From positions 44,454,001 through 44,518,000 of the forward strand of contig NC_135817.1 in the NCBI RefSeq assembly GCF_964213995.1: a DNA stretch of 64,000 nucleotides, given 5' to 3'. A model generated the notes under the pieces. The model did no database searches. It was not told the DNA's origin and was given only the letters and a program-made list of their open reading frames with translations. Origin of the DNA: Mustelus asterias (lineage: Eukaryota). Both the position numbers and the translations under genes were made by a program. Shown here in pieces: positions 6,144-61,767 of this stretch (within the stretch, counting starts at the first letter, position 1; each line of letters opens with the position of its first letter).

Positions 6144-6842
6144 ATGTGGAGATGCCGGCGTTGGACTGGGGTAAACACAGTAAGAAGTTTAACAACACCA
6201 GGTTAAAGTCCAACAGGTTTATTTGGTAGCAAAAGCCACACAAGCTTTCGAGGCTCTGAGCCCCTTCTTCAGGTGAGTGGGAATTCTGTTCACAAACAGA
6301 ACTTATAAGACACAGACTCAATTTACATGAATAATGGTTGGAATGCGAATACTTACAACTAATCCAGTCTTTAAGAAACAAAACAATGGGAGTGGAGAGA
6401 GCATCAAGACAGGCTATTGGGATATCAACCGGGATATTGGGTTTATGTCACACTATTTCACATAAATATTTCTGCTTTTTTCCTCCTGAGTCTTTATCAT
6501 GCGATCCTAGAATCAGAATTTATGTCACACTATTTGTAACTCCCACAGTTGCGTGGACCTGCAGAGTTTCACTGGCTGTCTTGTCTGGAGACAATACACA
6601 TCTTTTTAGCCTGTCTTGATGCTCTCTCCACTCCCATTGTTTTGTTTCTTAAAGACTGGATTAGTTGTAAGTATTCGCATTCCAACCATTATTCATGTAA
6701 ATTGAGTCTGTGTCTTATAAGTTCTGTTTGTGAACAGAATTCCCACTCACCTGAAGAAGGGGCTCAGAGCCTCGAAAGCTTGTGTGGCTTTTGCTACCAA
6801 ATAAACCTGTTGGACTTTAACCTGGTGTTGTTAAACTTCTTA
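6144..6842. mobile_element. Penelope-like element terminus with inverted pseudo-LTR arms
   Basis: ~235-bp near-perfect inverted repeat (6181-6416 vs 6607-6842); remnant of the ORF end (NRDIGFMSHY); TSD ttattgtgatatg at 6131-6143 and 6840-6852. Confidence 0.85.
6748..6784 (+). ncRNA. Minimal hammerhead ribozyme (Penelope type)
   Basis: cac-CTGAAGA-a-ggggctcagagcctc-GAAA-gctt-gtg; identical copy on the minus strand at about 6239-6275. Confidence 0.7.
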
Positions 6843-7055
6843 TTGTGATATGGCAGGTTAAATGTGGAGGGTGCTATCTTTCTTCAACTTGATCTTTATC
6901 TATTTTGCTCCACTCAGTAGATGTGTTATGTCTGGTTTTCTTCAAATATTTAGTGCCTTGTATTGGTATGTATCACATTTAATTTACCATCGTTATGCTA
7001 TTTACTGATTTTATCCAACTCTCCTTCTGGCTGTTCTTTCTGATTTGGACACTCG

Positions 7056-7887: not shown

Positions 7888-8940
7888 TCAATCATTTTAT
7901 CATCTGTGAATTTAACTAATTTAGTTTATTATGCATAGATAACAACTGTCTGAAGCTATTAGATTAATAAAGTAATGATTACATATGACAAAGTAAAATA
8001 AGGAATGTGTTTGAGTGATTTGTAAGTTAACGTATGTTTATTTTGGCATTGTGATTATAGTAACAATACAAATTAAATTTAATTCCTAACAAAAATTGGA
8101 GGAAAAAAATCACTCCTTCCATGACATAAAACATGTTACACTATGGTAACGTCATGATTAGAAATAACTCCTCTTCCCTGACTGTTTCTGTAAATCAAGA
8201 ACAATACAATATGAATGATGCCAAATTTGGAGAGATTTTTGCATATTGGATATACGTGAAGTTGTGGAGGTAATTAGTAATACTTGATCTCTAAGTCCGT
8301 AATGATAGACCAGCATTTCGGGCTAAGCGCCTTGCAGGTTAATACTTCATTTTCACTATCTTAGTATACTATCTCTGTGTAGGGAATTTCAAGATAGAAG
8401 AGATGTTTGACAGCTCGCATGGCAAAATGGAAATAGTAAAGTGAAGTCTCAAACATGAATAATCACCACGTGGGTAGGTAACAGAGAGTGCCCTGCACCA
8501 AGGGAACGATACAACAATGAGGGGGGAGAGGTGTCATTGAACATTTTTTTTTCTTGAGGTTTAACAGCAGATTTTCAGGAGATCAAAGTGACTTTGTTTT
8601 TATATCCAAAATAAAATTGCACTTCATTAGAAGATAAAGTACAAATAAAATAATATTTTATTTAGTATCTTAAAACTTCCTCAAAGATTACATGTGGCTG
8701 AAATAATAACACTTCAAAGTCTTCTTTCTTCAGATCTTTGTTTACTTGGCTAAACATTGGACTAGATCTTGTTTGAAAAATAACCACATTAACAGCACAT
8801 ACCATTTGTTTTTTTTATGTGCAAATTGGCCAGCAAGTTCATGGAATTAAGAAATATTGGGTGACTTCCAAATGTCCAGAACTTGTTGGTTGATTTGCTT
8901 TACACATGAGCCATTAGTCTTTCTGTTATTCTGTAAGGAA

Positions 8941-9265
8941 TTTTTTTTTAAATACTTTTCCAATTCAATCAAATCAAATCCAATTCAGAGTCTCAACAAG
9001 TTGAGACATTTCCGATCCAGGCTGACAAGACAGGGCGGGTGACTAAGCCACCCTGTCCTGGGCCTGATCTACATGAGTCAAGCTGATTGGAGGAGGGGGA
9101 GGATCCTCCTCCAAGACTTGAGCTCATTTGCATCTTAGCCAAAAGGCCGAGATGCCGCTTTTAAAAATTGCTTCATATGAAACATATGAAGCCTCAGCGT
9201 AACCTCATGACCTCATTCAAGTGCAGATCCGATACTACACTTGATCTTAGCCAAAAGACCGAGAA
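8941..9265 (-). mobile_element. U2 snRNA-headed SINE-like retroposon (SINEU-like)
   Basis: 9231-9265 matches U2 nt 6-40 with one mismatch; 9132-9152 matches U2 nt 7-27; poly(A) at 8941-8949; TSD ttattctgtaaggaa(tt) at 8926-8942 and 9266-9282. Confidence 0.85.
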
Positions 9266-10377
9266 TTATTCTGTAAGGAATTGATGTATTTGCACCTTAA
9301 TTGCCCATTAAACTTGCCACAGTAAGGACTGGAACAAAACAACATAAATACCTTTTTAATCATGTGATAATTGCTTGTAAGATACCAATGAACCTTGCTG
9401 GCCCAAAAAGAGAACCATTTAAACTTTCAATTTCATTCCTACATGTAGTCAATTGTTGTCAGAATTTGAAAATGCCTTTTTTTTTCCTGTCTCTTTTTCT
9501 TTGTCTTAATCCAATCTTTCTTTTCCCCTCTCTTTCTCTTACAGTACTGGATTTGTCTTTAATGCACCCTCCTTCTCTGTTTGTTTGTGCCATTCACTGA
9601 AGTTATACATTTTCTGTTGCCCTCGTTATCAGCTCATGCTTCCAGCAAGTTATGGCACAAATAGTATGTGAGCTGTAGAGTGTAGAAAATGGTCTAACTA
9701 CCAGTGTGTACAGCAAGATACCAAACTCCAGCAGGGATTGGCTCAGTATATTCAGTCATATTTATGGATATATCGAAATGCATAACAATGGGAGCATTCT
9801 TAATTTTGCTCTTAAATATAGGATATGAAACTTAAAGCTTCAGCCTTTCAGTGTTTAATACTATCTGATACCATATATATAAATTAATACATTTAAAATT
9901 GAAGGAAAGACTTTGTTCCTGTATTAAGTCATTCTCCACCTAATATTTTCAGAAGATAACTTCAGTTTGTCAAGTATATGATGTGATTTAGTGCTCTCTC
10001 ATGTCTATGATGAATATACACGCAGTAAAATGTGTTTAGCATGAAGCAAGTATTAAAGACTAAATATTCACTGTTGAAGGTTTCATGGTTACCCGAAGTA
10101 ATAACTAGGACTTTTGCTGGTGAATAAATAAAGGAATTGAGAAAGGATGGGTCAGGTTAACAGTGACGATTTTAGGCCTCTCCAAATAACGGCTTGAGCT
10201 TTGTATTTCCTCAAACATGCCTGTTTGAATTGGACGGATCACTAACTATCCATGTTTGACCAGCACTTTTGCTAACTGGATTCACTTCTTACTTTGTCTT
10301 TATTTCCTGGTTGCCAGCATGTAACCACACCACTTTCTTCCTTTCCTGTTAAGTTTGCAAAAATGCACAGTCTAGAT

Positions 10378-16891: not shown

Positions 16892-19850
16892 AAAGAACAA
16901 AGAACAAAGAACAGTACAGCACAGGAAACAGGCCTTCGGCCCTCCAAGCCTGTGCCGCTCCTTGGTCCAACTAGACCAATCGTTTGTATCCCTCCATTCC
17001 CAGGCTGCTCATGTGACTATCCAGGTAAGTCTTAAACGATGTCAGCGTGCCTGCCTCCACCACCCTACTTGGCAGCGCATTCCAGGCCCCCACCACCCTC
17101 TGTGTAAAAAACGTCCCTCTGATGTCTGAGTTATACTTCGCCCCTCTCAGCTTGAGCCCGTGACCCCTCGTGATCGTCACCTCCGACCTGGGAAAAAGCT
17201 TCCCACTGTTCACCCTATCTATACCCTTCATAATCTTGTATACCTCTATTAGATCTCCCCTCATTCTCCGTCTTTCCAAGGAGAACAACCCCAGTCTACC
17301 CAATCTCTCCTCATAGCTAAGACCCTCCATACCAGGCAACATCCTGGTAAACCTTCTCTGCACTCTCTCCAATGCCTCCACGTCCTTCTGGTAGTGCGGC
17401 GACCAGAACTGGACGCAGAACTCCAAATGCGGCCTAACCAGCGTTCTATACAGCTGCATCATCAGACTCCAGCTTTTATACTCTATACCCCGTCCTATAA
17501 AGGCAAGCATACCATATGCCTTCTTCACCACCTTCTCCACCTGTGTTGCCACCTTCAAGGATTTGTGGACTTGCACACCTAGGTCCCTCTGTGTTTCTAT
17601 ACTCCTGATGACTCTGCCATTTATTGCATAACTCCTCCCTACATTATTTCTTCCAAAATGCATCACTTCGCATTTATCCGGATTAAATTCCATCTGCCAC
17701 CTCTCCGCCCAATTTTCCAGCCTATCTATATCCTGCTGTATTGCCCGACAATGCTCTTCGCTATCCGCAATTCCAGCCATCTTTGTGTCATCCGCAAACT
17801 TGCTGATTACACCAGTTACACCTTCTTCCAAATCATTTATATATATCACAAATAGCAGAGGTCCCAGTACAGAGCCCTGCGGAACACCACTGGTCACAGA
17901 CCTCCAGCCGGAAAAAGACCCTTCGACCACTACCCTCTGTCTCCTATGGCCAAGCCAGTTCTCCACCCATCGAGCCACTTCTCCTTGTATCCCATGAGCC
18001 TTAACCTTCTTAACCAACCTGCCATGTGGGACTTTGTCAAATGCCTTACTGAAATCCATATAGACGACATCCACGGCCCTTCCTTCATCAACCGTTTTTG
18101 TCACTTCCTCAAAAAACTCCACCAAATTTGTAAGGCACGACCTCCCTCTTACAAAACCATGCTGTCTGTCACTAATGAGATTGTTCCGTTCTAAATGCAC
18201 ATACATCCTGTCTCTAAGAATCCTCTCCAACAACTTCCCTACCACGGACGTCAAGCTCACCGGCCTATAATTTCCTGGGTTATCCCTGCTACCCTTCTTA
18301 AACAACGGGACCACATTCGCTATCCTCCAATCCTCAGGGACCTCACCCGTGTCCAAAGAAGCGACAAAGATTTCCGTCAGAGGCCCAGCAATTTCCTCTC
18401 TCGTCTCCCTGAGCAGTCGAGGATAGATGCCATCAGGCCCTGGGGCTTTGTCAGTTTTAATGTTCCCTAAAAAACCTAACACTTCCTCTCTCGTAATGGA
18501 GATTTTCTCTAACGGGTCAACACCTCCCTCCGAGACACTCCCGGTTAACACGCCCCTCTCCTTCGTGAATACCGATGCAAAGTATTCATTTAGGATCTCC
18601 CCTATTCCCTTGGGTTCTAAGCATAATTCCCCTCCTTTGTCCCTGAGGGGTCCGATTTTCTCCCTGACAACTCTTTTGTTCCTAACGTATGAATAGAATG
18701 CCTTAGGATTCTCCTTAATCCTGCCTGCCAAGAACATCTCGTGCCCTCTTTTTGCCCTTCTAACTCCCCGTTTGAGATCTTTCCTACTCTCTCTGTATTC
18801 CTCCAGAGCTCCATCTGTTTTCAGTTGCCTGGACTTAACGTACGCCTCCCTTTTCATTTTAATCAGATCCTCAATTTCCCTGGTTATCCACGGCTCTCCA
18901 ATCCTACCTTTCCTATCTTTCCTTTTTACAGGCACATGCCTATCCTGCAGCCTTATCAATAGTTCCTTAAAAGACTCCCACATGCCAGACGCGGACTTAC
19001 CCTCGAACATCCTCTCCCAATCAACATCCACCAATTCCTGCCTAATCCGGCTATAGTCAGCCTTCCCCCAATTTAGCACCCTGCCCGTAGGACAGCACTC
19101 ATCCTTGTCCATTACTATCCTAAAGTTAACAGAGTTGTGGTCACTATTTGCCACATGTTCCCCTACCGAAACTTTGACGACCTGACCGGGCTCATTTCCC
19201 AGAACTAGGTCCAGTATAGCCCCCTCTCTAGTCGGGCTATCTACATACTGTTCCAAAGAACCTTCCAGTACGCATTTTACAAATTCCTCCCCGTCCGGTC
19301 CCCCAGCTCTAAGCACTTTCCAGTCTGTGCCAGGGAAATTAAAGTCCCCCACTACAACAACCCTATGTTTTCTGCACCTATCCAGAATCTCCTGACATAT
19401 CCTTTCCTCCACTTCCCGTGGGCTGTTGGGTGGTCTGTAGTACACCCCCAGCATAGTGACTGCACCCTTCCTGTTTCTGAGTTCCACCCACAGCGACTCA
19501 GTACATGACCCCTCTAAGTTGTCTACCCTCTGCACCGCGGTAATATGCTCCTTAACTAATATCGCTACTCCCCCACCTTTTTTAGCCCCTCCTCTGTCTC
19601 GCCTAAAACACTGATACCCCGGAATATTCAGCTGCCAGTCCTGTCCTTTTAACCAAGTTTCCGTCACCGCAACCACATCCAAATTCCGCACAAGCATTAA
19701 GGCCCTAAGTTCGTCTGTTTTACCCGTTACACTCCTCGCATTGAAGCAGATGCACTCCAGACCTCCAGGCCCAGTCAGGTCCTCCTCCTCCAGAGTGCTC
19801 CTCTTCTTAGCTAGCCTTGCCCTGGCCCCCAGCTCGACCCCAGGCTTCAT
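16892..19850 (-). mobile_element. CR1-clade LINE (HER1-like), 5'-truncated near the ORF2 start
   Basis: ORF2, short 3'UTR and (TTCTTTG)n tail at 16892-16912; no ORF1. Confidence 0.95.
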
Positions 19851-19871
19851 AATAATGATGTATAATGTCAA
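16971..19871 (-). CDS. CR1 ORF2: AP endonuclease + reverse transcriptase, uninterrupted
   Basis: APE motifs FNARS, TETWL, GDFN, LDLVL, SDH; RT motifs YRPVSLTS, DFSKAFD, GVPQGSVLGPLLF, FADD. The first ~7 residues are probably read-through from the flank. Confidence 0.92.
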   Translation of the reverse strand: MTLYIIIMKPGVELGARARLAKKRSTLEEEDLTGPGGLECICFNARSVTGKTDELRALMLVRNLDVVAVTETWLKGQDWQLNIPGYQCFRRDRGGAKKGGGVAILVKEHITAVQRVDNLEGSCTESLWVELRNRKGAVTMLGVYYRPPNSPREVEERICQEILDRCRKHRVVVVGDFNFPGTDWKVLRAGGPDGEEFVKCVLEGSLEQYVDSPTREGAILDLVLGNEPGQVVKVSVGEHVANSDHNSVNFRIVMDKDECCPTGRVLNWGKADYSRIRQELVDVDWERMFEGKSASGMWESFKELLIRLQDRHVPVKRKDRKGRIGEPWITREIEDLIKMKREAYVKSRQLKTDGALEEYRESRKDLKRGVRRAKRGHEMFLAGRIKENPKAFYSYVRNKRVVREKIGPLRDKGGELCLEPKGIGEILNEYFASVFTKERGVLTGSVSEGGVDPLEKISITREEVLGFLGNIKTDKAPGPDGIYPRLLRETREEIAGPLTEIFVASLDTGEVPEDWRIANVVPLFKKGSRDNPGNYRPVSLTSVVGKLLERILRDRMYVHLERNNLISDRQHGFVRGRSCLTNLVEFFEEVTKTVDEGRAVDVVYMDFSKAFDKVPHGRLVKKVKAHGIQGEVARWVENWLGHRRQRVVVEGSFSGWRSVTSGVPQGSVLGPLLFVIYINDLEEGVTGVISKFADDTKMAGIADSEEHCRAIQQDIDRLENWAERWQMEFNPDKCEVMHFGRNNVGRSYAINGRVIRSIETQRDLGVQVHKSLKVATQVEKVVKKAYGMLAFIGRGIEYKSWSLMMQLYRTLVRPHLEFCVQFWSPHYQKDVEALERVQRRFTRMLPGMEGLSYEERLGRLGLFSLERRRMRGDLIEVYKIMKGIDRVNSGKLFPRSEVTITRGHGLKLRGAKYNSDIRGTFFTQRVVGAWNALPSRVVEAGTLTSFKTYLDSHMSSLGMEGYKRLV

Positions 19872-20854
19872 GAAACTGTGTCATAAATGTGGGAAAATCA
19901 AAACAAGCATTTGAGATTGTGTAATAGTTTGGGAATTTGCTTAAGTGTAACTCCTCAGCCAACCTTGCAATAACTGGTGAGTTTGCACAAGAAAAAAATG
20001 GAAAGGGGCCAATATAGATTTTCTGCTAAAGACCTCAGCCAAGTATCCAAGACTGTCTGAATTGGGAAAAGAAGGCGACGAACAGAGGGAGTTGTTGCTT
20101 ATTGCTAATCTCCCTAATGAAATAAGATCAAAAGGTTTTGAAAATTGCAACTGCTGAACAACAAATGCCCAACACTGTGGTTAGGTGTGCCAGCTTGTTT
20201 TCCATTAACAAACAAGCAGTTCTCTGTTCATCAGTGCAGTTAATCATTGTGGTAAATTTGTTCAGTAATGGTTCCAAGTTTAAAATTTATCAACTAACTA
20301 GATTTGAGGAAATGATCTAATTGTTGCTGAGGTTGCTGTTCAAATCATTAACATTTCTACTGATTTGTATGTTTAAAACCAATCGTCAAAGGTCTGATCA
20401 ACTGCATAAACTACATCTGATATTTTTTGTCAAACATTAAACTATATCTACATTAGGACCTTGCATAATGATAGTGATGAGGTGAATTCAGACATAATGA
20501 GAGGAAGTTTGGGTTGCATAGACAGACTTGCGCCAAGGGAGATGGGCATTCCATGGGCCGCCAAGTATTCTCCAATGACATCACTGAAGAATGCTGTGCT
20601 GATTGCACAGATTGCCTAAGGGGAATCAATACAAGTCTGTATAGCCACTAAGTGAGCAAATTCTTCCCCAATGAATGTATTTCTTGCAGACCAGGAAATC
20701 ACCAGGTCTTTGGCTAAGTTATCTTTTACCTGAATGCTACTTGAAATGTTGCAATTAAGCTCAACACAGTTTGGTTAAGGAAGTGAAAAAGCAAGATTTC
20801 TTGTTCATGTTCACTACCATACAATCCCTGCTCAAAGTGGATTGACTTGGAGTT

Positions 20855-24098: not shown

Positions 24099-24375
24099 AA
24101 CACAGTAAGAGTTCTAACAACACCAGGTTAAAGTCCAACAGGTTTATTTGGTAGCAAATACCATTAGCTTTCGGAGCGCTGCTCCTTCGTCGGATGGAGT
24201 GGAAATCTGCTCTCAAACAGGGCACAGAGCACAAACAGGGCACTCCATCTGACAAAGGAGCAGCGCTCCGAAAGCTAATGGTATTTGCTACCAAATAAAC
24301 CTGTTGGACTTTAACCTGGTATTGTTAAAACTCTTACTGTGTTTACCCCAGTCCAACGCCGGCATCTCCACATCA
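24099..24375. mobile_element. Short palindromic Penelope-like terminus
   Basis: Two inverted ~135-bp arms, each with a hammerhead carrying one core change; perfect 13-bp TSD tttaaacctttta at 24086-24098 and 24376-24388. Confidence 0.85.
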
Positions 24376-30519: not shown

Positions 30520-32040
30520 GTTCATGGGATGTAAATGTCACTAAGCCAGCATTTATTGCCTATCCCTAACAGCCTTTGAGAAGATGGTGGTGAGCTGTCT
30601 TCTCGAACCACTGCAGTCCATGTGATGTAGGTACATCCACAGTGCTGTTAGGAAAGGTGTTCCAGGATTTTGATCCAGTGGCAGTGAAAGAACAGCAATA
30701 TATTTCCAAGTTAGGATGCTGAGTGAATTGGGCAGAAACTTGCAGGTGGTGGTGTCCCCATGCATCTGCTGCCCTTGTCATTCAAGATGGTAGAGGTTGT
30801 GGGTTTGAAAGGTGCCGTCTAAAGAGCCTTGGTGAGTTACTGCAGTACATCTTGTAGATGCTGCTACGGTATGTCGATGGTGGAGGGGGTAAATGTTTGT
30901 GGATAGGGTGCCAATCAAGCAGGCTGTTTTGCCCTGGATGGTAGCAAGCTTCTTGCGTATTGTTGGCGCTGCACTCGTCCAAGCAAATGGAGAACATTCC
31001 ATCACACTCCTGACTTGTACCTTATCTATGGTAGACAGGCTTTGGGAAGTCAGATCGTGAGTTACTCGTCACAGTATTCCTAGCCTCTGACCTGCTGTTG
31101 AAGGTGCAGTATTTAAATGGCTAGTCCAGTTCAGTTTCTGGTCAATAGTATGTTAACAGTAGGCGATTCAGTGATGGTACTGCCATTGAATGTCAAGGGG
31201 CAAAGGTTAGATTAACTCCATCTCTCTTGTTGGAGATGGTCGTTGCCTGGCACTTGTGTGGCATGAATGTTACTTGCTACTTGTCAGCCAGGATCTGAGA
31301 TGATTGGCCACCACAACCATCTTCCTTTGTGCTAGGTATATTTTCAACCAGTGGAGAATTTTCTCTCTGATATATCTATTGACTCCAGTTTTGCCTGACT
31401 CCTCGATGGCACACTTGGTAAAATGCTGCCTTGATGTCAAGGGCAGTCATTATCACCTCGCCTCTGGAGCTCAGTTCTTTCGTCCAGATTTGAACAAAGG
31501 CTGTATTGAGATCAGGAGCTGAGTGGCCTTAGCAGAACCCAAACTGAGCAACAGTGAGCAGGTTATTGCTAAGCAGGTGCTGCTTGATAGCACTGTTGAT
31601 GACCCCTTCCATCACTTTACTGCCGATTGAGATTAGACTTATGGGGCGGTTATTGGCCGGGCTGGATTTGTCTTGTTATTTGTGTACAGGACATACCCGG
31701 GCAATTTTCCACATTGCTGGGCAAATGCCAGTGCTGTAGTTGTACTGGAACAGCTTGATTAGAGGGTACGGCAATTTCTAGAGCACGTTTTCAGTACTGT
31801 TGCCAGAATCTTATCAGAGCCAGTAGTCTTTGAAATGTCTAGCCCTTCAGCCGTTTCTTGATATTACATGGAGTAACTCGAATTGACTGAAGACTGGCAT
31901 CTGTGATGCTGGGGAGCTCTGGAGGAGGCTGAGATGAATCATCCACTTGGCACTGATAGCTGAAAATTGGGGCAAATGCTTCAGCCTTACCTGTTGCATT
32001 AATTTGCTGGGCTCCCTCATCACTGAAGATAGGGATATGC
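30520..32040 (-). mobile_element. Decayed LINE RT fragments (same family as 1-385 and 35375-36480)
   Basis: Reverse RT C-terminal motifs and ALDIKAAF-like motif; 3' end aataaatgctggc. Confidence 0.7.
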
Positions 32041-33231
32041 AGGAAGTTTTAGCAGTGGCCAATTTCTATAAATAATGCTAACAAATAGTTTTTCTTTATG
32101 GATTTGATTCTTAATTTCTAAGTTTAGCAGTTCTGAAAAATAAACATTTAATTTTACTATTAAATTTAATGTGCTGTTCAATGTCCTGTAATGGTGACTG
32201 GTTTAGCATGGCAATGGCATATCTGTTTTACTGAGAGCAATTTTTTTAACCGGCTTATTAAGTTAGCTGTTTTAACAATGGTTTTAATTTTGTTTTGTAT
32301 GTTTGAATTTATTATTGTAAGATTGTAGAGTTCCTTCTCTCAAAACCAGACACCATTTTCCCTTTAACCAGATCATATAATCAAGAACCTATGATAACTG
32401 TTAACGTAATTCTGGATTGCTCAATTCATGGCTGAACCCATCACGTTCTAACAAAACTAATATTGTGCTCTAGAGTCTCAATCTCCTGATCCACCTCAAT
32501 ATCTGCACCCTTAAGGTTTATTTTCTTTCTAACCCTGCCTAGACCTCTAGAACCCCTAATTTTCCTGTGGTGCAATCCCTAACACAGTCTTCGCATCGCT
32601 CCTCCCTTGCAACTATACTATGGGACCCTAAGGCCCATATTGCTGCCTGATCGTGACCCCCTATCCCCAATTGTCTGAGATCAAGGCACTACTTAATTCC
32701 ACTGCAGTAAAGTTGAGACATTTCCACAGTGAAGCCTAAACTGCATCCTTCTTCCGAATCACACTTGTCCCTTCTCAATTGCTCTAAATTACAGGAGCAT
32801 TTTGTCAAGTTCTGAGTCACTCTAGGATTCTGCTCAGTGTTCCAGACCTTAACATCCTTTCCAATGCATCCTTATCCTGAGACTCTATATTCCCACCAGG
32901 ATTGAACCCTGAGATTGCACTCCCCCATCATCTCATGCCACATCCCAAGAATCACCCCATATTGCAAACTCCATATTCCGGTTGTACCAAAGCTCAGGAT
33001 CACACTCCACAATATGACTGCTGAAGCTGCCAGAGCTTGACACACTCCCATAATTACTGCCAAACTTTCAAATCCTCTCCCTATTCCACCTGTTGCTATT
33101 AAACCCCTGCCTATCAGGAACTTTGTAAAATGTCACCCAGGGGTTGAATCATTGAAATTTAAATCATGGAAGAAGGCCTTTTAGTCCATTATGCATGTGC
33201 CGCTTTTTGAAAACGGTGAAGGAACCTATAA

Positions 33232-39211: not shown

Positions 39212-39990
39212 GAACAAGAACAAAGAACAATACAGCACAGGAACAGGCCCTTCGGCCCTCCAAGCCCGCGCCGCTCCCCAGTCCAGGATTGAATCCTGAA
39301 TCCAGGATCCCCGCCCAATTTTCCAGCCTATCTACATACCAATATCCTATCCACCGAGCTGTCCCTCACAGCTACGATGCTTTGTTCATTACAACCTATT
39401 AACTCACCCCCACCCCCCCATTCCAGACCATGTGATCTCCAGGGAGAGGCGAAAACCCAGAGTGAAAAACCCCAGGGCCAATATGGGGAAAAAAAATCTG
39501 GGAAATTCCTCTCCGACCCCCTGAGGCGATCGAAACGAGTCCAGGAGATCACAATGGCCCTGATCGGGAAATGCTTCCCAACCCTAGTCATTTCCACTTC
39601 CACGAACACCATATGAATTCCCTGCCCCCGAGACAGGTTCCCAACTATCCGCAGTCTTGCTCTGTACTGGCACCAGCAAGATGATCATAGAATGAAGCCT
39701 TGAAACGAGAAACAAGGAACAATTAGCCCGCGCCGCTCCCTGGTCCAGACTAGACCACTCTTTTGTATCCCTCCATTCCCACTCCATTCATATTGCTGTC
39801 TAGATAAGTCTTAAACGTTCCCAGTGTATCCGCCTCCACCACCTTGCCCGGCAACACATTCCAGGCCCCCACGACCCTCTGTGTGAAATATGTCCTTCTG
39901 ATATCTGTGTTAAACCTCCCCCCCTTCACCTTGAACCTATGACCCCTCGTGAACGTCACCACCGACCCGGGGAAAAGCTTCCCACCGTTC
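39212..39990 (-). mobile_element. Second copy of the long-3'UTR CR1 family, 5'-truncated
   Basis: Near identical to 16168-16891 and extends about 60 bp further 5'. Confidence 0.9.
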
Positions 39991-47607: not shown

Positions 47608-48520
47608 TAAATTCCCCTCCAACTCTATTTTCAAATTCCCCTCGAACTCAATTTTTAAGTTTGCTGATGACACCACCAGTGTGGGTCGGATTTCAAACAA
47701 TGACGTGACACAGTACAGGAAAGAGATAGACAATCTGGTGAACTGGTGCGACAACAATAATCTCTCCCTCGATGTCAACAAAACGAAGGAGATGGTCATC
47801 GACTTCAGGAAGTGTAAAGGAGAACATGTCCCTGTCTACATCAACGGGGACGAAGTAGAAAGGGTTGAGAGCTTCATGTTTTTAGGTGTCCAGATTACCA
47901 ACAACCTATTCTGGTCCCTCCATGCCAACGCTATATTTAAGAAAGCCACCAATGTCTCTACTTTCTCAGGAGACTAAGGAAATTTGGCAAAGGGGAATTG
48001 TCCACGACAACTCTCACCAACTTCTACAGATGCACCATAGAAAACATTCTTTCCAGTTGTATCTCAGCTTGGTATGGCTTCTGTTCTGTCCAACACTGCA
48101 GTAAACTACAAAGGATTGTGAACGAAGCCCAGTCCATCATTCAAACAAGCCTCCCATCCATTGATACTATCTATACTTTCCACTGCCTCAGAAAAGCAGC
48201 CAGCATAATCAAGGACCCCACACACCCCGGACATTCTCTCTTCCACCTTCCTCCATTGGTAAAAAGATACAGAAGTCTGAGGACAAGTACTAACCAACTC
48301 AAAAATAACTTCTTCCCTTTTGCCATCAGACTTTTGAATGGACCGATCTTGCATTAAGTTGATCTTTCTCTACACCCTAGTTATGACTGTAACACTACAT
48401 TCTGCAATCTCTCCTTTCCTTCTCTATGTATGGTATGTTTTGTGTGCTTAGCGTGCAAGAAACAATACTTTTCACTGTACACTAATAGTACATGTGACAC
48501 TAATAAATCAATTAATCAAT
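47608..48520 (+). mobile_element. 5'-truncated Rex1/Babar-like LINE inserted in an old CR1
   Basis: KFADDTTSVGRISNND...LVNWCDNNNLSLDVNKTKEMVIDFRK and FYRCTIENILS; tail aataaatcaattaatcaat; frameshifted. Confidence 0.8.
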
Positions 48521-59966: not shown

Positions 59967-60812
59967 GGGGTGGCACAGTGATTAGCACTGCTGCCTCACA
60001 GCGCCAGGGACCCGGCTTGGGTCACTGTCTGTGTGGAGTTTGCACGTTCTCCCTGTGTCTGCGTGGGTTTCCTCCGGGTGCTCTGGATTCCTCCCACAGT
60101 AAGAAGTCTCACAACACCAGGTTAAAGCCCAACAGGTTTATTTGGTAGCACAAGCTTTCGGAGTGTTGTTCCTTCTTCAGGTGAGTGAGGAGTTGTGTTC
60201 ACAAACAGGGCATATATAGACACAAACTCAATTTACAAGATAATGGTTGGAATGTGAGCCTTTACAGGTAATCAAGTCTCAAAGGTACAGACAATGTGAG
60301 TGGAGAGAGGCTGAACTCAACAGAAACTGATAGCCAAGTTCCGCACACATGAGGATGGCCTCAACTGGGATCTTGGGTTCATGTCACACTATCTGTAACC
60401 CCCACAACTTGCCTGGGCTTGCAAAATCTCACTAACTGTCCTGGCTGGAGACAATACACACCTCTTTAACCTGTGCTTAACCCTCTCTCCACTCACATTG
60501 TCTGTACCTGTAAAGACTTGCATTCCAACCATTATCTTGTAAATTGAGTTTGTGTCTGTATATGCTCTGTTTGAGAACACAACTCCTCACTCACCTGAAG
60601 AAGGTGCGACACTCCGAAAGCTTGTGCTACCAAATAAACGTTTCGGACTTTAACCTGGTGTTGTGAGACTTCTTACTGTGCTTATCCCAGTCCAATGCTG
60701 GCATCTCCACATCATTCCTGTCACAGTCGAAAGCTGTGTGGGTTAGGTAGATTAGCCATGCTAAATTGCCCCTCAGTGTCAGGGGGACTAGCTAGGGTAA
60801 ATGTGTGGGGTT
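59967..60812 (+). mobile_element. HE1 SINE split by the Penelope insertion
   Basis: Head and V domain at 59967-60100 resume at 60715. Confidence 0.8.
60101..60714. mobile_element. Penelope-like terminus with inverted arms, nested in an HE1 SINE
   Basis: LIAKFRTHEDGLNWDLGFMSHYL* at about 60327-60398; hammerheads at 60149-60183 (-) and 60592-60636 (+); imperfect TSD ttcctcccacagt / ttcctgtcacagt. Confidence 0.85.
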
Positions 60813-60889
60813 CCTGGAGCAATATATTGCAGAACTGACAAGGGAAAATATACTAATTTAAAGATCTAGCATTGTGCAAAGAGTAATAA

Positions 60890-61380
60890 AGTGGAAGCCT
60901 TGGGGCCTGTCCAAGGAGTGGGTCCCAGTGGAAGCCCTGGGAGTCTGTCCTGGGATCTGTCCGGGGTGGGACCCAGTGGATCCCCGGTTCCTGTAGGGCG
61001 GCCCCGGTGAAACTCTGTGGAGAGGCCGGCCGGCGGTCGCTATGGTTCCGGGAGCCGCCGCGGCCCCTCTCCTGGCTCAAGCCGGTTGCGGCGCCCGCTT
61101 CGCTGCCTCCCTCGCCCGGTGTAAGTCTTTGACGGCCGCCGGGCGGAGCGGCGGCAGCCTCGGGCCCGAATCCAGGCCCCGGCAGCAGGTGAGAGCCGGA
61201 GCCCAGGCGGGGGAGCGACACGGCGGGAGCCGGGACTGGGGCCGGGGCCGGGCCGCAGTTTCCCGGGGAAAGGGGCTGCCAGCGGGGCCGGCTCGATGGG
61301 CAGAGCAGCCTGATAGTTTGCTGCAGCCACAGGTTACTCCTGTTGGGTTGTCCTGAGGCAGAGTTCAGCCTGAGGCAGCT
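60890..61380. promoter_or_regulatory. CpG island / promoter of the downstream gene
   Basis: Abrupt GC- and CpG-rich stretch in AT-rich DNA, with a GGGCGG box and no TIRs or repeat tail. Confidence 0.75.
61042..61188 (+). CDS. Probable first coding exon of the next gene (NSUN3 expected by synteny); resembles a mitochondrial presequence
   Basis: Strong Kozak gctATGg, 49 codons (MVPGAAAAPLLAQAGCGARFAASLARCKSL...), phase-0 donor CAG|gtgaga. Identity inferred from gene order only; no exon 2 recognised in the window. Confidence 0.45.
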
Positions 61381-61767
61381 TCAGGATTTTAATTGTGTTT
61401 TTTTAAATGTTAATAATGGGGAAGAAGAATAAACAGATTGAAGGATTGTTAAATTAAAGTTTAGAGAGGGTGAATTCAGTGTCATATCAGCTACAGAGAA
61501 ATACATTAAAGACGTGGGAGAGGAAATGGGATTGAGCAGAAACATAAGAAAAGTGAAATGAAAGGTTTTAAAATCTCTAACAGCAATTGAAACCAGAGTG
61601 AATGAGAATGTGTACAAACTTTAAAAAAATTAATTCATGGGACATTGGTGTTGCTGGCTGGCCAGAATGTATTGTCCATCTCTAGTTGCCCAAGGGCATT
61701 TGAGAGTCAACCACATTGCTGTGGCTCTGGAATCACATGTAGGGCAGACCAGGTAAGGACGGCAGAT

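Follow-up and report, generated by a model that had tools for sequence, protein, structure and literature searches.

A U2 snRNA-headed, SINE-like retroposon beside the syntaxin-19 gene of a shark

The window (the whole stretch of DNA that was analysed, 64 kb) carries a single-exon syntaxin-19 orthologue. Among the best 120 of 290 matches, the identity of its product reaches 89% with the syntaxin-19 proteins of Cetorhinus maximus and Scyliorhinus canicula, lies at 63–70% with those of rays and chimaera, and does not exceed about 53% with those of bony vertebrates. Since this syntaxin is far closer to the two sharks than to rays, chimaera or bony vertebrates, the host is a shark, in keeping with the original prediction of a cartilaginous fish. 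About 1.5 kb past the syntaxin stop codon, and on the same strand, lies the short insert analysed here (Table 1). The window also holds an uninterrupted frame of 969 aa on the minus strand (16971–19880) with endonuclease and reverse transcriptase domains, which we take to be CR1-like; this LINE family is young, because the adjacent segment 16171–16892 is 98% identical to 39212–39928. At 6176–6847 there is a MITE-like inverted repeat of 241 bp (99.6% identity), with related copies near 24100, 28900 and 60100–60700, and a GC-rich, CpG-island-like stretch at 60850–61400 is possibly a host promoter or first exon.

Table 1. Features of the insert and of the neighbouring gene, in the order in which the minus strand is read (positions are those of the window).
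Feature	Position	Strand	Remarks
Single-exon syntaxin-19 orthologue, 293 aa	10744–11625	-	
5′ copy of the target-site duplication	9266–9282	-	17 nt, identical to 8926–8942
Head 1, U2 snRNA nt 6–40 (stem-loop 1 and branch-point recognition region)	9231–9265	-	Rfam RF00004 and by-eye comparison
Head-complementary arm, 10 nt	9217–9226	-	Pairs with U2 nt 27–36 of head 1, one G-U pair
Perfect hairpin, 10 bp, 3-nt loop	9170–9192	-	
T5-A4 linker	9159–9169	-	Would terminate Pol III
Inner U2 piece (nt 7–27 at 9152–9132)	9130–9155	-	Forms U2 stem-loop 1, plus three Watson-Crick pairs
Octamer ATGCAAAT, core of the snRNA distal sequence element	9126–9133	-	Overlaps the end of the inner hairpin
Body hairpin	9073–9127	-	About -31 kcal/mol, perfect 10-bp core
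Body hairpin	9014–9069	-	About -33 kcal/mol, 13-bp core
Short palindromic hairpin close to the 3′ end	8990–9007	-	
AT-rich 3′ segment	8950–8989	-	Degenerate 5-nt repeats; no AATAAA or ATTAAA
Poly(A) tail	8943–8949	-	7 A; 9 with the two A's common to the duplication
3′ copy of the target-site duplication	8926–8942	-	17 nt, identical to 9266–9282

The insert occupies 323 nt of the minus strand (9265–8943) and is flanked by identical direct repeats of 17 bp; since the first two A's of the target-site duplication (TSD) could be tail, the TSD measures 15–17 bp and the tail A7–9, which agrees with the perfect TSD and the poly(A) originally described as enclosing the element. Exact 17-mer direct repeats 60–600 nt apart number five in the window, the TSD of the insert counted, and among the 14 runs of at least eight A's on both strands only the tail of the insert precedes a 12-mer that is duplicated upstream. 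The 3′ junction reads poly(A) and then TTCC, and the insertion site differs from the TT/AAAA of human L1. This is one insert, bearing the signs of target-primed reverse transcription and with one TSD enclosing all of its parts, and it is a real retroposed element. TSDs near 15 bp combined with poly(A) are typical of mobilisation by the L1 group, and many other non-LTR elements leave shorter ones. The L2 chimeras of platypus, for instance, have TSDs of 1–9 bp (PMC4476161).

The 5′ end of the insert, head 1, matches the Rfam model of U2 (RF00004, gathering score 46) with 46.3 bits and E 4.5e-06, the sole gathering-level Rfam RNA match in the 64 kb, and by eye it corresponds to nt 6–40 of human U2 with one substitution, C13 to T, as had been read from the sequence at the outset. 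After a non-U2 spacer of 78 nt there follows an inner piece that is identical by eye to U2 nt 7–27 and agrees with head 1 at 20 of 21 positions; Rfam aligned only model positions 7–26 of it (19.5 bits, E 0.047). The original prediction spoke of tandem heads about 80 nt apart: two U2 pieces in the same orientation and at this distance are indeed present, but the sequence that divides them is not U2. Rfam gave no U2 match in 9156–9232 or in the insert body, and U2 stem-loops II–IV and the Sm site are absent after nt 40; a full-length or variant U2 snRNA gene is thus excluded. A spacer consisting of diverged U2 nt 41–105 has no Rfam support, the likeness of the bases after nt 40 to U2 41–58 is not significant (1049/3000 random), and a duplication that would relate units 1 and 2 beyond stem-loop 1 was likewise rejected, the two being unrelated (943/2000 and 1128/1500).

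It had further been predicted that the element gains a new head at every cycle of insertion into U2 genes, the inner piece then being the previous head. The common orientation of the two U2 5′ pieces and the U2-like target discussed below would accord with such a cycle, and a gapped alignment can carry the inner piece to nt 40, but this extension is not significant (367–457/4000 random), and the unrelated sequences after nt 40 (the second of the two comparisons above) and the intervening non-U2 sequence speak against it. The cycle would moreover predict abutting copies of U2(1–40), or, with a TSD of 15–17 bp made inside U2, heads that extend to about nt 57. Here the two heads lie apart and the inner piece comprises stem-loop 1 only; this part of the prediction is not supported, and it is the least probable of the explanations weighed here.

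The different U2 positions at which the two pieces stop, 40 and 27, and the substitution in head 1 are in line with a SINEU-like family as conceived by Kojima, in which two U2 heads would have been acquired by template switching of the LINE's reverse transcriptase and then fixed, with transcription from flanking promoters and mobilisation by an L1/Tx1-type LINE, the element never residing in U2 genes. In SINEU-1, the subfamilies came about as U1/U2 sequences were added one after another and parts were duplicated; they end in poly(A) tails, contain internal oligo(T) and lack an internal promoter (PMC4494074); template jumps of R2 onto U12 snRNA are also known (PMC3414825). Since head 1 carries one mismatch and the TSDs none, a fixed head fits as well as a fresh one. 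Template switching alone, however, leaves unexplained that the end of the head shares its register with a U2-like target and that the bases next to the head pair with it, although both features could have arisen after fixation, and we consider this explanation to be on the unlikely side.

The RNA of the whole element is predicted to fold into a chain of hairpins of -139 kcal/mol (z -8.0), with 0 of 100 shuffles as low. The body without its U2 pieces still reaches a z of -6.2, below all 160 minus-strand tiles of 180 nt (lowest -5.45), and three other SINE-like copies in the window gave values from 0.5 to -1.3 in four folds. Five perfect stems of at least 7 bp are found in the body, a number attained by one of 198 tiles and exceeded by none, the element itself being included in this tiling. 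As the fold of the body lies far beyond the background, it points to an RNA shaped by evolution and not to a random piece of mRNA; strong folding is by itself no proof of multiple copies. Rfam offered no family for the body at the gathering level and no convincing match. The T5-A4 linker is, as we take it, Sm-site-like, but ends in A where the consensus has G.

Downstream of head 1, the complementary arm is predicted to sequester the branch-point recognition sequence. Among 127,980 window positions, three carry a 10-mer of this type, one of them being the head's own opposite strand, and a gapped test of the same complementarity was weaker (66/2000 shuffles). In the predicted ensemble of this one sequence, the stem between arm and head has pair probabilities of 0.98–1.0 and the native stem-loop 1 of head 1 is close to 0; the inner stem-loop 1 does form there, lengthened by three Watson-Crick pairs. 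An arm complementary to the head implies that head and body regularly occur on one RNA.

The Pol III box A and box B patterns were not found on the sense strand of the insert, which has three internal runs of T4–5, shows no poly(A) signal and codes for nothing; in the 64-kb window no tRNA was detected. Together with the long TSD, the A-tail and the snRNA-derived head, the lack of Pol III boxes upholds the original description of the insert as a SINE-like retroposon. Besides the octamer ATGCAAAT, the body contains a variant octamer at 9067–9074 (minus strand). The octamer consensus is the core of the snRNA enhancer, the distal sequence element or DSE (PMC3544641). The canonical octamer lies about 190 nt from the element's 3′ end, a spacing like that of a DSE if a tandem copy followed downstream. 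Little weight is given to the octamer, because it occurs three times in the window, the one in the insert counted, and no PSE could be established. About 300 nt upstream of the insert were free of the octamer and of the tested PSE-start motif, and Rfam found no further U2 sequence on either side. An HDV-like ribozyme had 0 matches on both strands with one home-made descriptor run without a positive control, no hammerhead motif was found in the insert, and no ribozyme family appeared among the Rfam matches up to E 10.

A blastn search (word size 7) for a second copy in the window returned short matches only, the best being 16/16 at 32710 (E 0.021) and 20/23 at 31302, neither of which extends to a recognisable copy, although 64 kb is too small for this absence to mean much. 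The search for copies through protein frames was a weak test that covered 2 of the 9 open frames of at least 30 aa around the element: frame 9160–8996 gave no candidate copy among predicted proteins, its phmmer match P0002 (24 of 55 residues at 52% identity, in a Ser/Gly-rich stretch of the query) being judged low-complexity, and frame 8952–9083 had none among longer predicted proteins. A body pattern had 0 matches in GTDB, a prokaryotic collection and hence no real test of a shark repeat; the tandem-head pattern had two in prokaryotic collections, both chance bacterial repeats, and plasmids and phages yielded 8 and 2 short matches only, respectively, at E 0.3–1. None of the window's other repeats matched the tail of the insert significantly, and its derivation from the 3′ ends of the window's other LINEs was rejected, with one common 10-mer only. 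The latter lies in the antisense 3′ end of a LINE remnant (48464–48520), which has this 10-mer and similar 5-nt repeats in common with 8951–8980; the 10-mer could be due to chance or be a remnant of a source copy's flank.

The lack of a second copy in the window and in the protein-frame searches would suit a one-off chimeric retrocopy, in which a U2 fragment was joined by template switching to a single-copy structured RNA, or to an unrelated SINE already holding a U2 stem-loop. Chimeras of snRNAs with TSDs, sometimes including sequence of unknown origin, are found in mammals, platypus and lizard (PMC4476161), but such an event would require two independent U2 pieces and a chance complementarity between head and body (the 66/2000 above), and the body has neither a gathering-level Rfam family nor a poly(A) signal, so that this origin appears improbable. 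Judged from its evolved structure and not from a copy count, the element probably belongs to a multicopy family.

In the literature searched, which left most subscription papers and Repbase Reports outside its scope, no snRNA-headed SINE was found for a cartilaginous fish, and Tx1/Keno elements were undocumented in sharks. One review names L2, CR1 and SINEs as prevalent in the elephant shark, and the available sections of a paper on elephant-shark SINEs leave snRNA unmentioned.

When its first base is set at U2 nt 41, directly after the last base of the head, the TSD agrees with U2 nt 41–57 at 10 of 17 positions, the other 12 of 13 offsets scoring 3–7; at least 10/17 is reached at 710 of 127,968 window positions (0.55%) and 9 of 1,965 flank positions, and as the comparison is post hoc and concerns one site, allowing for the 13 offsets (0.0055 × 13) gives about 0.07. 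With three upstream nt added the match becomes 13/20, equalled at 44 of 127,962 positions, and the likeness fades with more upstream bases, to 13/27 (1.3%) with 10 and 14/37 (9%) with 20. The best register places the start of the TSD at the equivalent of U2 nt 41–43, and head 1 ends at nt 40, two nt from the Keno/Utopia site 38/39. The TSD of the crocodilian SINEU-3, compared in the same way, matches U2 nt 41–55 at 11 of 15 positions and in nearly the same register, and it matches the shark site at 9/16, a value found at 1,062 of 127,970 positions (0.8%) and the best of nine offsets. The published target duplication of SINEU-3 sits in Mariner-N4_AMi, and the LINE to which SINEU-3 is attributed is Tx1-Mar, a relative that groups with the U2-specific Keno; the U2 likeness of the target goes unremarked in the sections of that paper describing it (PMC4494074). 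The SINEU-3 target suggests that Tx1-Mar kept the U2-like preference of Keno.

A U2-like target directly after a U2 fragment could also have been produced in two steps, in which a tailless retrocopy of U2 6–40 made the TSD and a U2-targeting element without a TSD of its own (9230–8943) entered later, since U2 6–40 followed by the shark TSD would mimic U2 6–57. Retrocopies of snRNAs truncated at the 3′ end and flanked by TSDs are the commonest class in human (PMC5322556), and a crocodilian Utopia has been found in a U2-like remnant of this kind (PMC4640811). Tailless copies, however, prime by complementarity at the 3′ junction (PMC5322556), yet the first two TSD bases mismatch U2 41–42; two events would moreover be invoked where one suffices, and this course is very improbable.

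The architecture corresponds to that of SINEU (PMC4494074), which has a U2-derived 5′ head, more than one snRNA piece, a non-snRNA 3′ body, a poly(A) tail, a length of less than 500 bp, internal oligo(T) and no Pol III promoter, and SINEU-3 in particular has a TSD of similar length and similar U2 likeness. By these features the shark element works like SINEU. It is not filed with the crocodilian families SINEU-1, -2 and -3, from which its host sets it apart, given that SINEU is recorded only in crocodilians (Kojima 2015, PMC4494074), a setting repeated in a review of 2017. At the shark site no Mariner-type target was evident; a head-complementary arm and a chain of hairpins, both present in the shark element, do not form part of the SINEU descriptions in the relevant sections of the former paper.

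Keno and Tx1-Mar have a U2 or U2-like target, which the shark site apparently resembles, and Tx1-11_Crp carries a U2 head (PMC4494074); both are, in contrast to this non-coding element, autonomous LINEs. Keno (Tx1 clade, APE) has been reported from frogs, fish, lancelet and hydra (PMC4640811), and Utopia (NeSL clade, RLE) uses a U2 site near nt 38/39, its families in reptiles also inserting off target at U2-like sequence with 20-bp TSDs (PMC4640811). The 3′ flanks of Keno and Utopia begin at U2 nt 39 (TCTG), whereas the shark TSD begins at the equivalent of 41–43, and most off-target Utopia copies of turtles and crocodilians keep TCTG at the 3′ junction (PMC4640811), which the shark junction lacks; the shark element is therefore not filed as a Keno or Utopia insertion. 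The host table for Utopia in the same paper includes no cartilaginous fish (PMC4640811). The link to Keno/Tx1 put forward in the original prediction is favoured by the apparently U2-like target in register with the head end, but not by the 3′ junction. The R2 SIDEs, short, non-autonomous, resident in a host RNA gene and transcribed along with that gene (PMC3414825), provide the model proposed here; they differ in their 28S target and in an HDV-like ribozyme, a motif not found in the shark element by the search described above. Chimeric retrocopies and tailless retropseudogenes of snRNAs (PMC4476161, PMC5322556) resemble it in the 3′-truncated 5′ snRNA and the long TSD, but they are single events with one snRNA piece, whereas the shark insert combines two U2 pieces with a strongly folded body.

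The explanation tentatively preferred, with slightly less than even confidence, is a SINEU-like non-autonomous retroposon, probably of independent origin in sharks, moved by a LINE of the L1/Tx1 group that is related to Keno/Tx1-Mar and has a relaxed, U2-like preference; with the same reserve, the insert may be a young copy. One event of target-primed reverse transcription would have made the whole insert. Source copies would reside in U2 genes after nt 40, where Pol II, starting at the U2 promoter, would transcribe them together with U2, and each RNA would thus start with U2 1–40. On re-insertion into a U2 gene, the leader cDNA would anneal to the upstream DNA, whose sequence is identical, in the way proposed for R2 and 28S, and no head would therefore be added; at an off-target site, the leader would be copied in, slightly 5′-truncated and with a TSD. 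By pairing with the leader, the first bases of the element would conceal the branch-point region, and the inner stem-loop 1 would have been captured once, at an earlier time, and retained as a structural module. Retention of upstream target sequence and uniform junctions have a precedent in R2 (PMC3774820). In its full form, a shark SINE-like family that lives in U2 genes, borrows the U2 promoter and masks the branch-point recognition sequence of its leader with an antisense arm, as a U2 counterpart of the R2 SIDEs and a second case in which snRNA-headed SINEs arose independently, is possible, though doubtful.

Kojima left open how snRNA-headed SINEs are transcribed, U1 and U2 having no internal promoter (PMC4494074), and a shark family resident in U2 genes would, if true, answer this question. 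If the family is young, it would provide an independent case in which near-intact copies show transcription starts and target sites directly. If other copies proved to have both the U2-like target and the arm that masks the head, these features would tie the origins of SINEU to U2-targeting LINEs of the Keno type, and would show how an element can reside in the gene of a splicing RNA without giving rise to a U2-like transcript that does harm; with a single-copy body, the insert would be an ordinary curiosity. A T-run followed by A's closes both the first 110 nt and the whole element (9159–9169 and 8943–8956, minus strand), hinting that the element may be a dimer of two U2-headed monomers.
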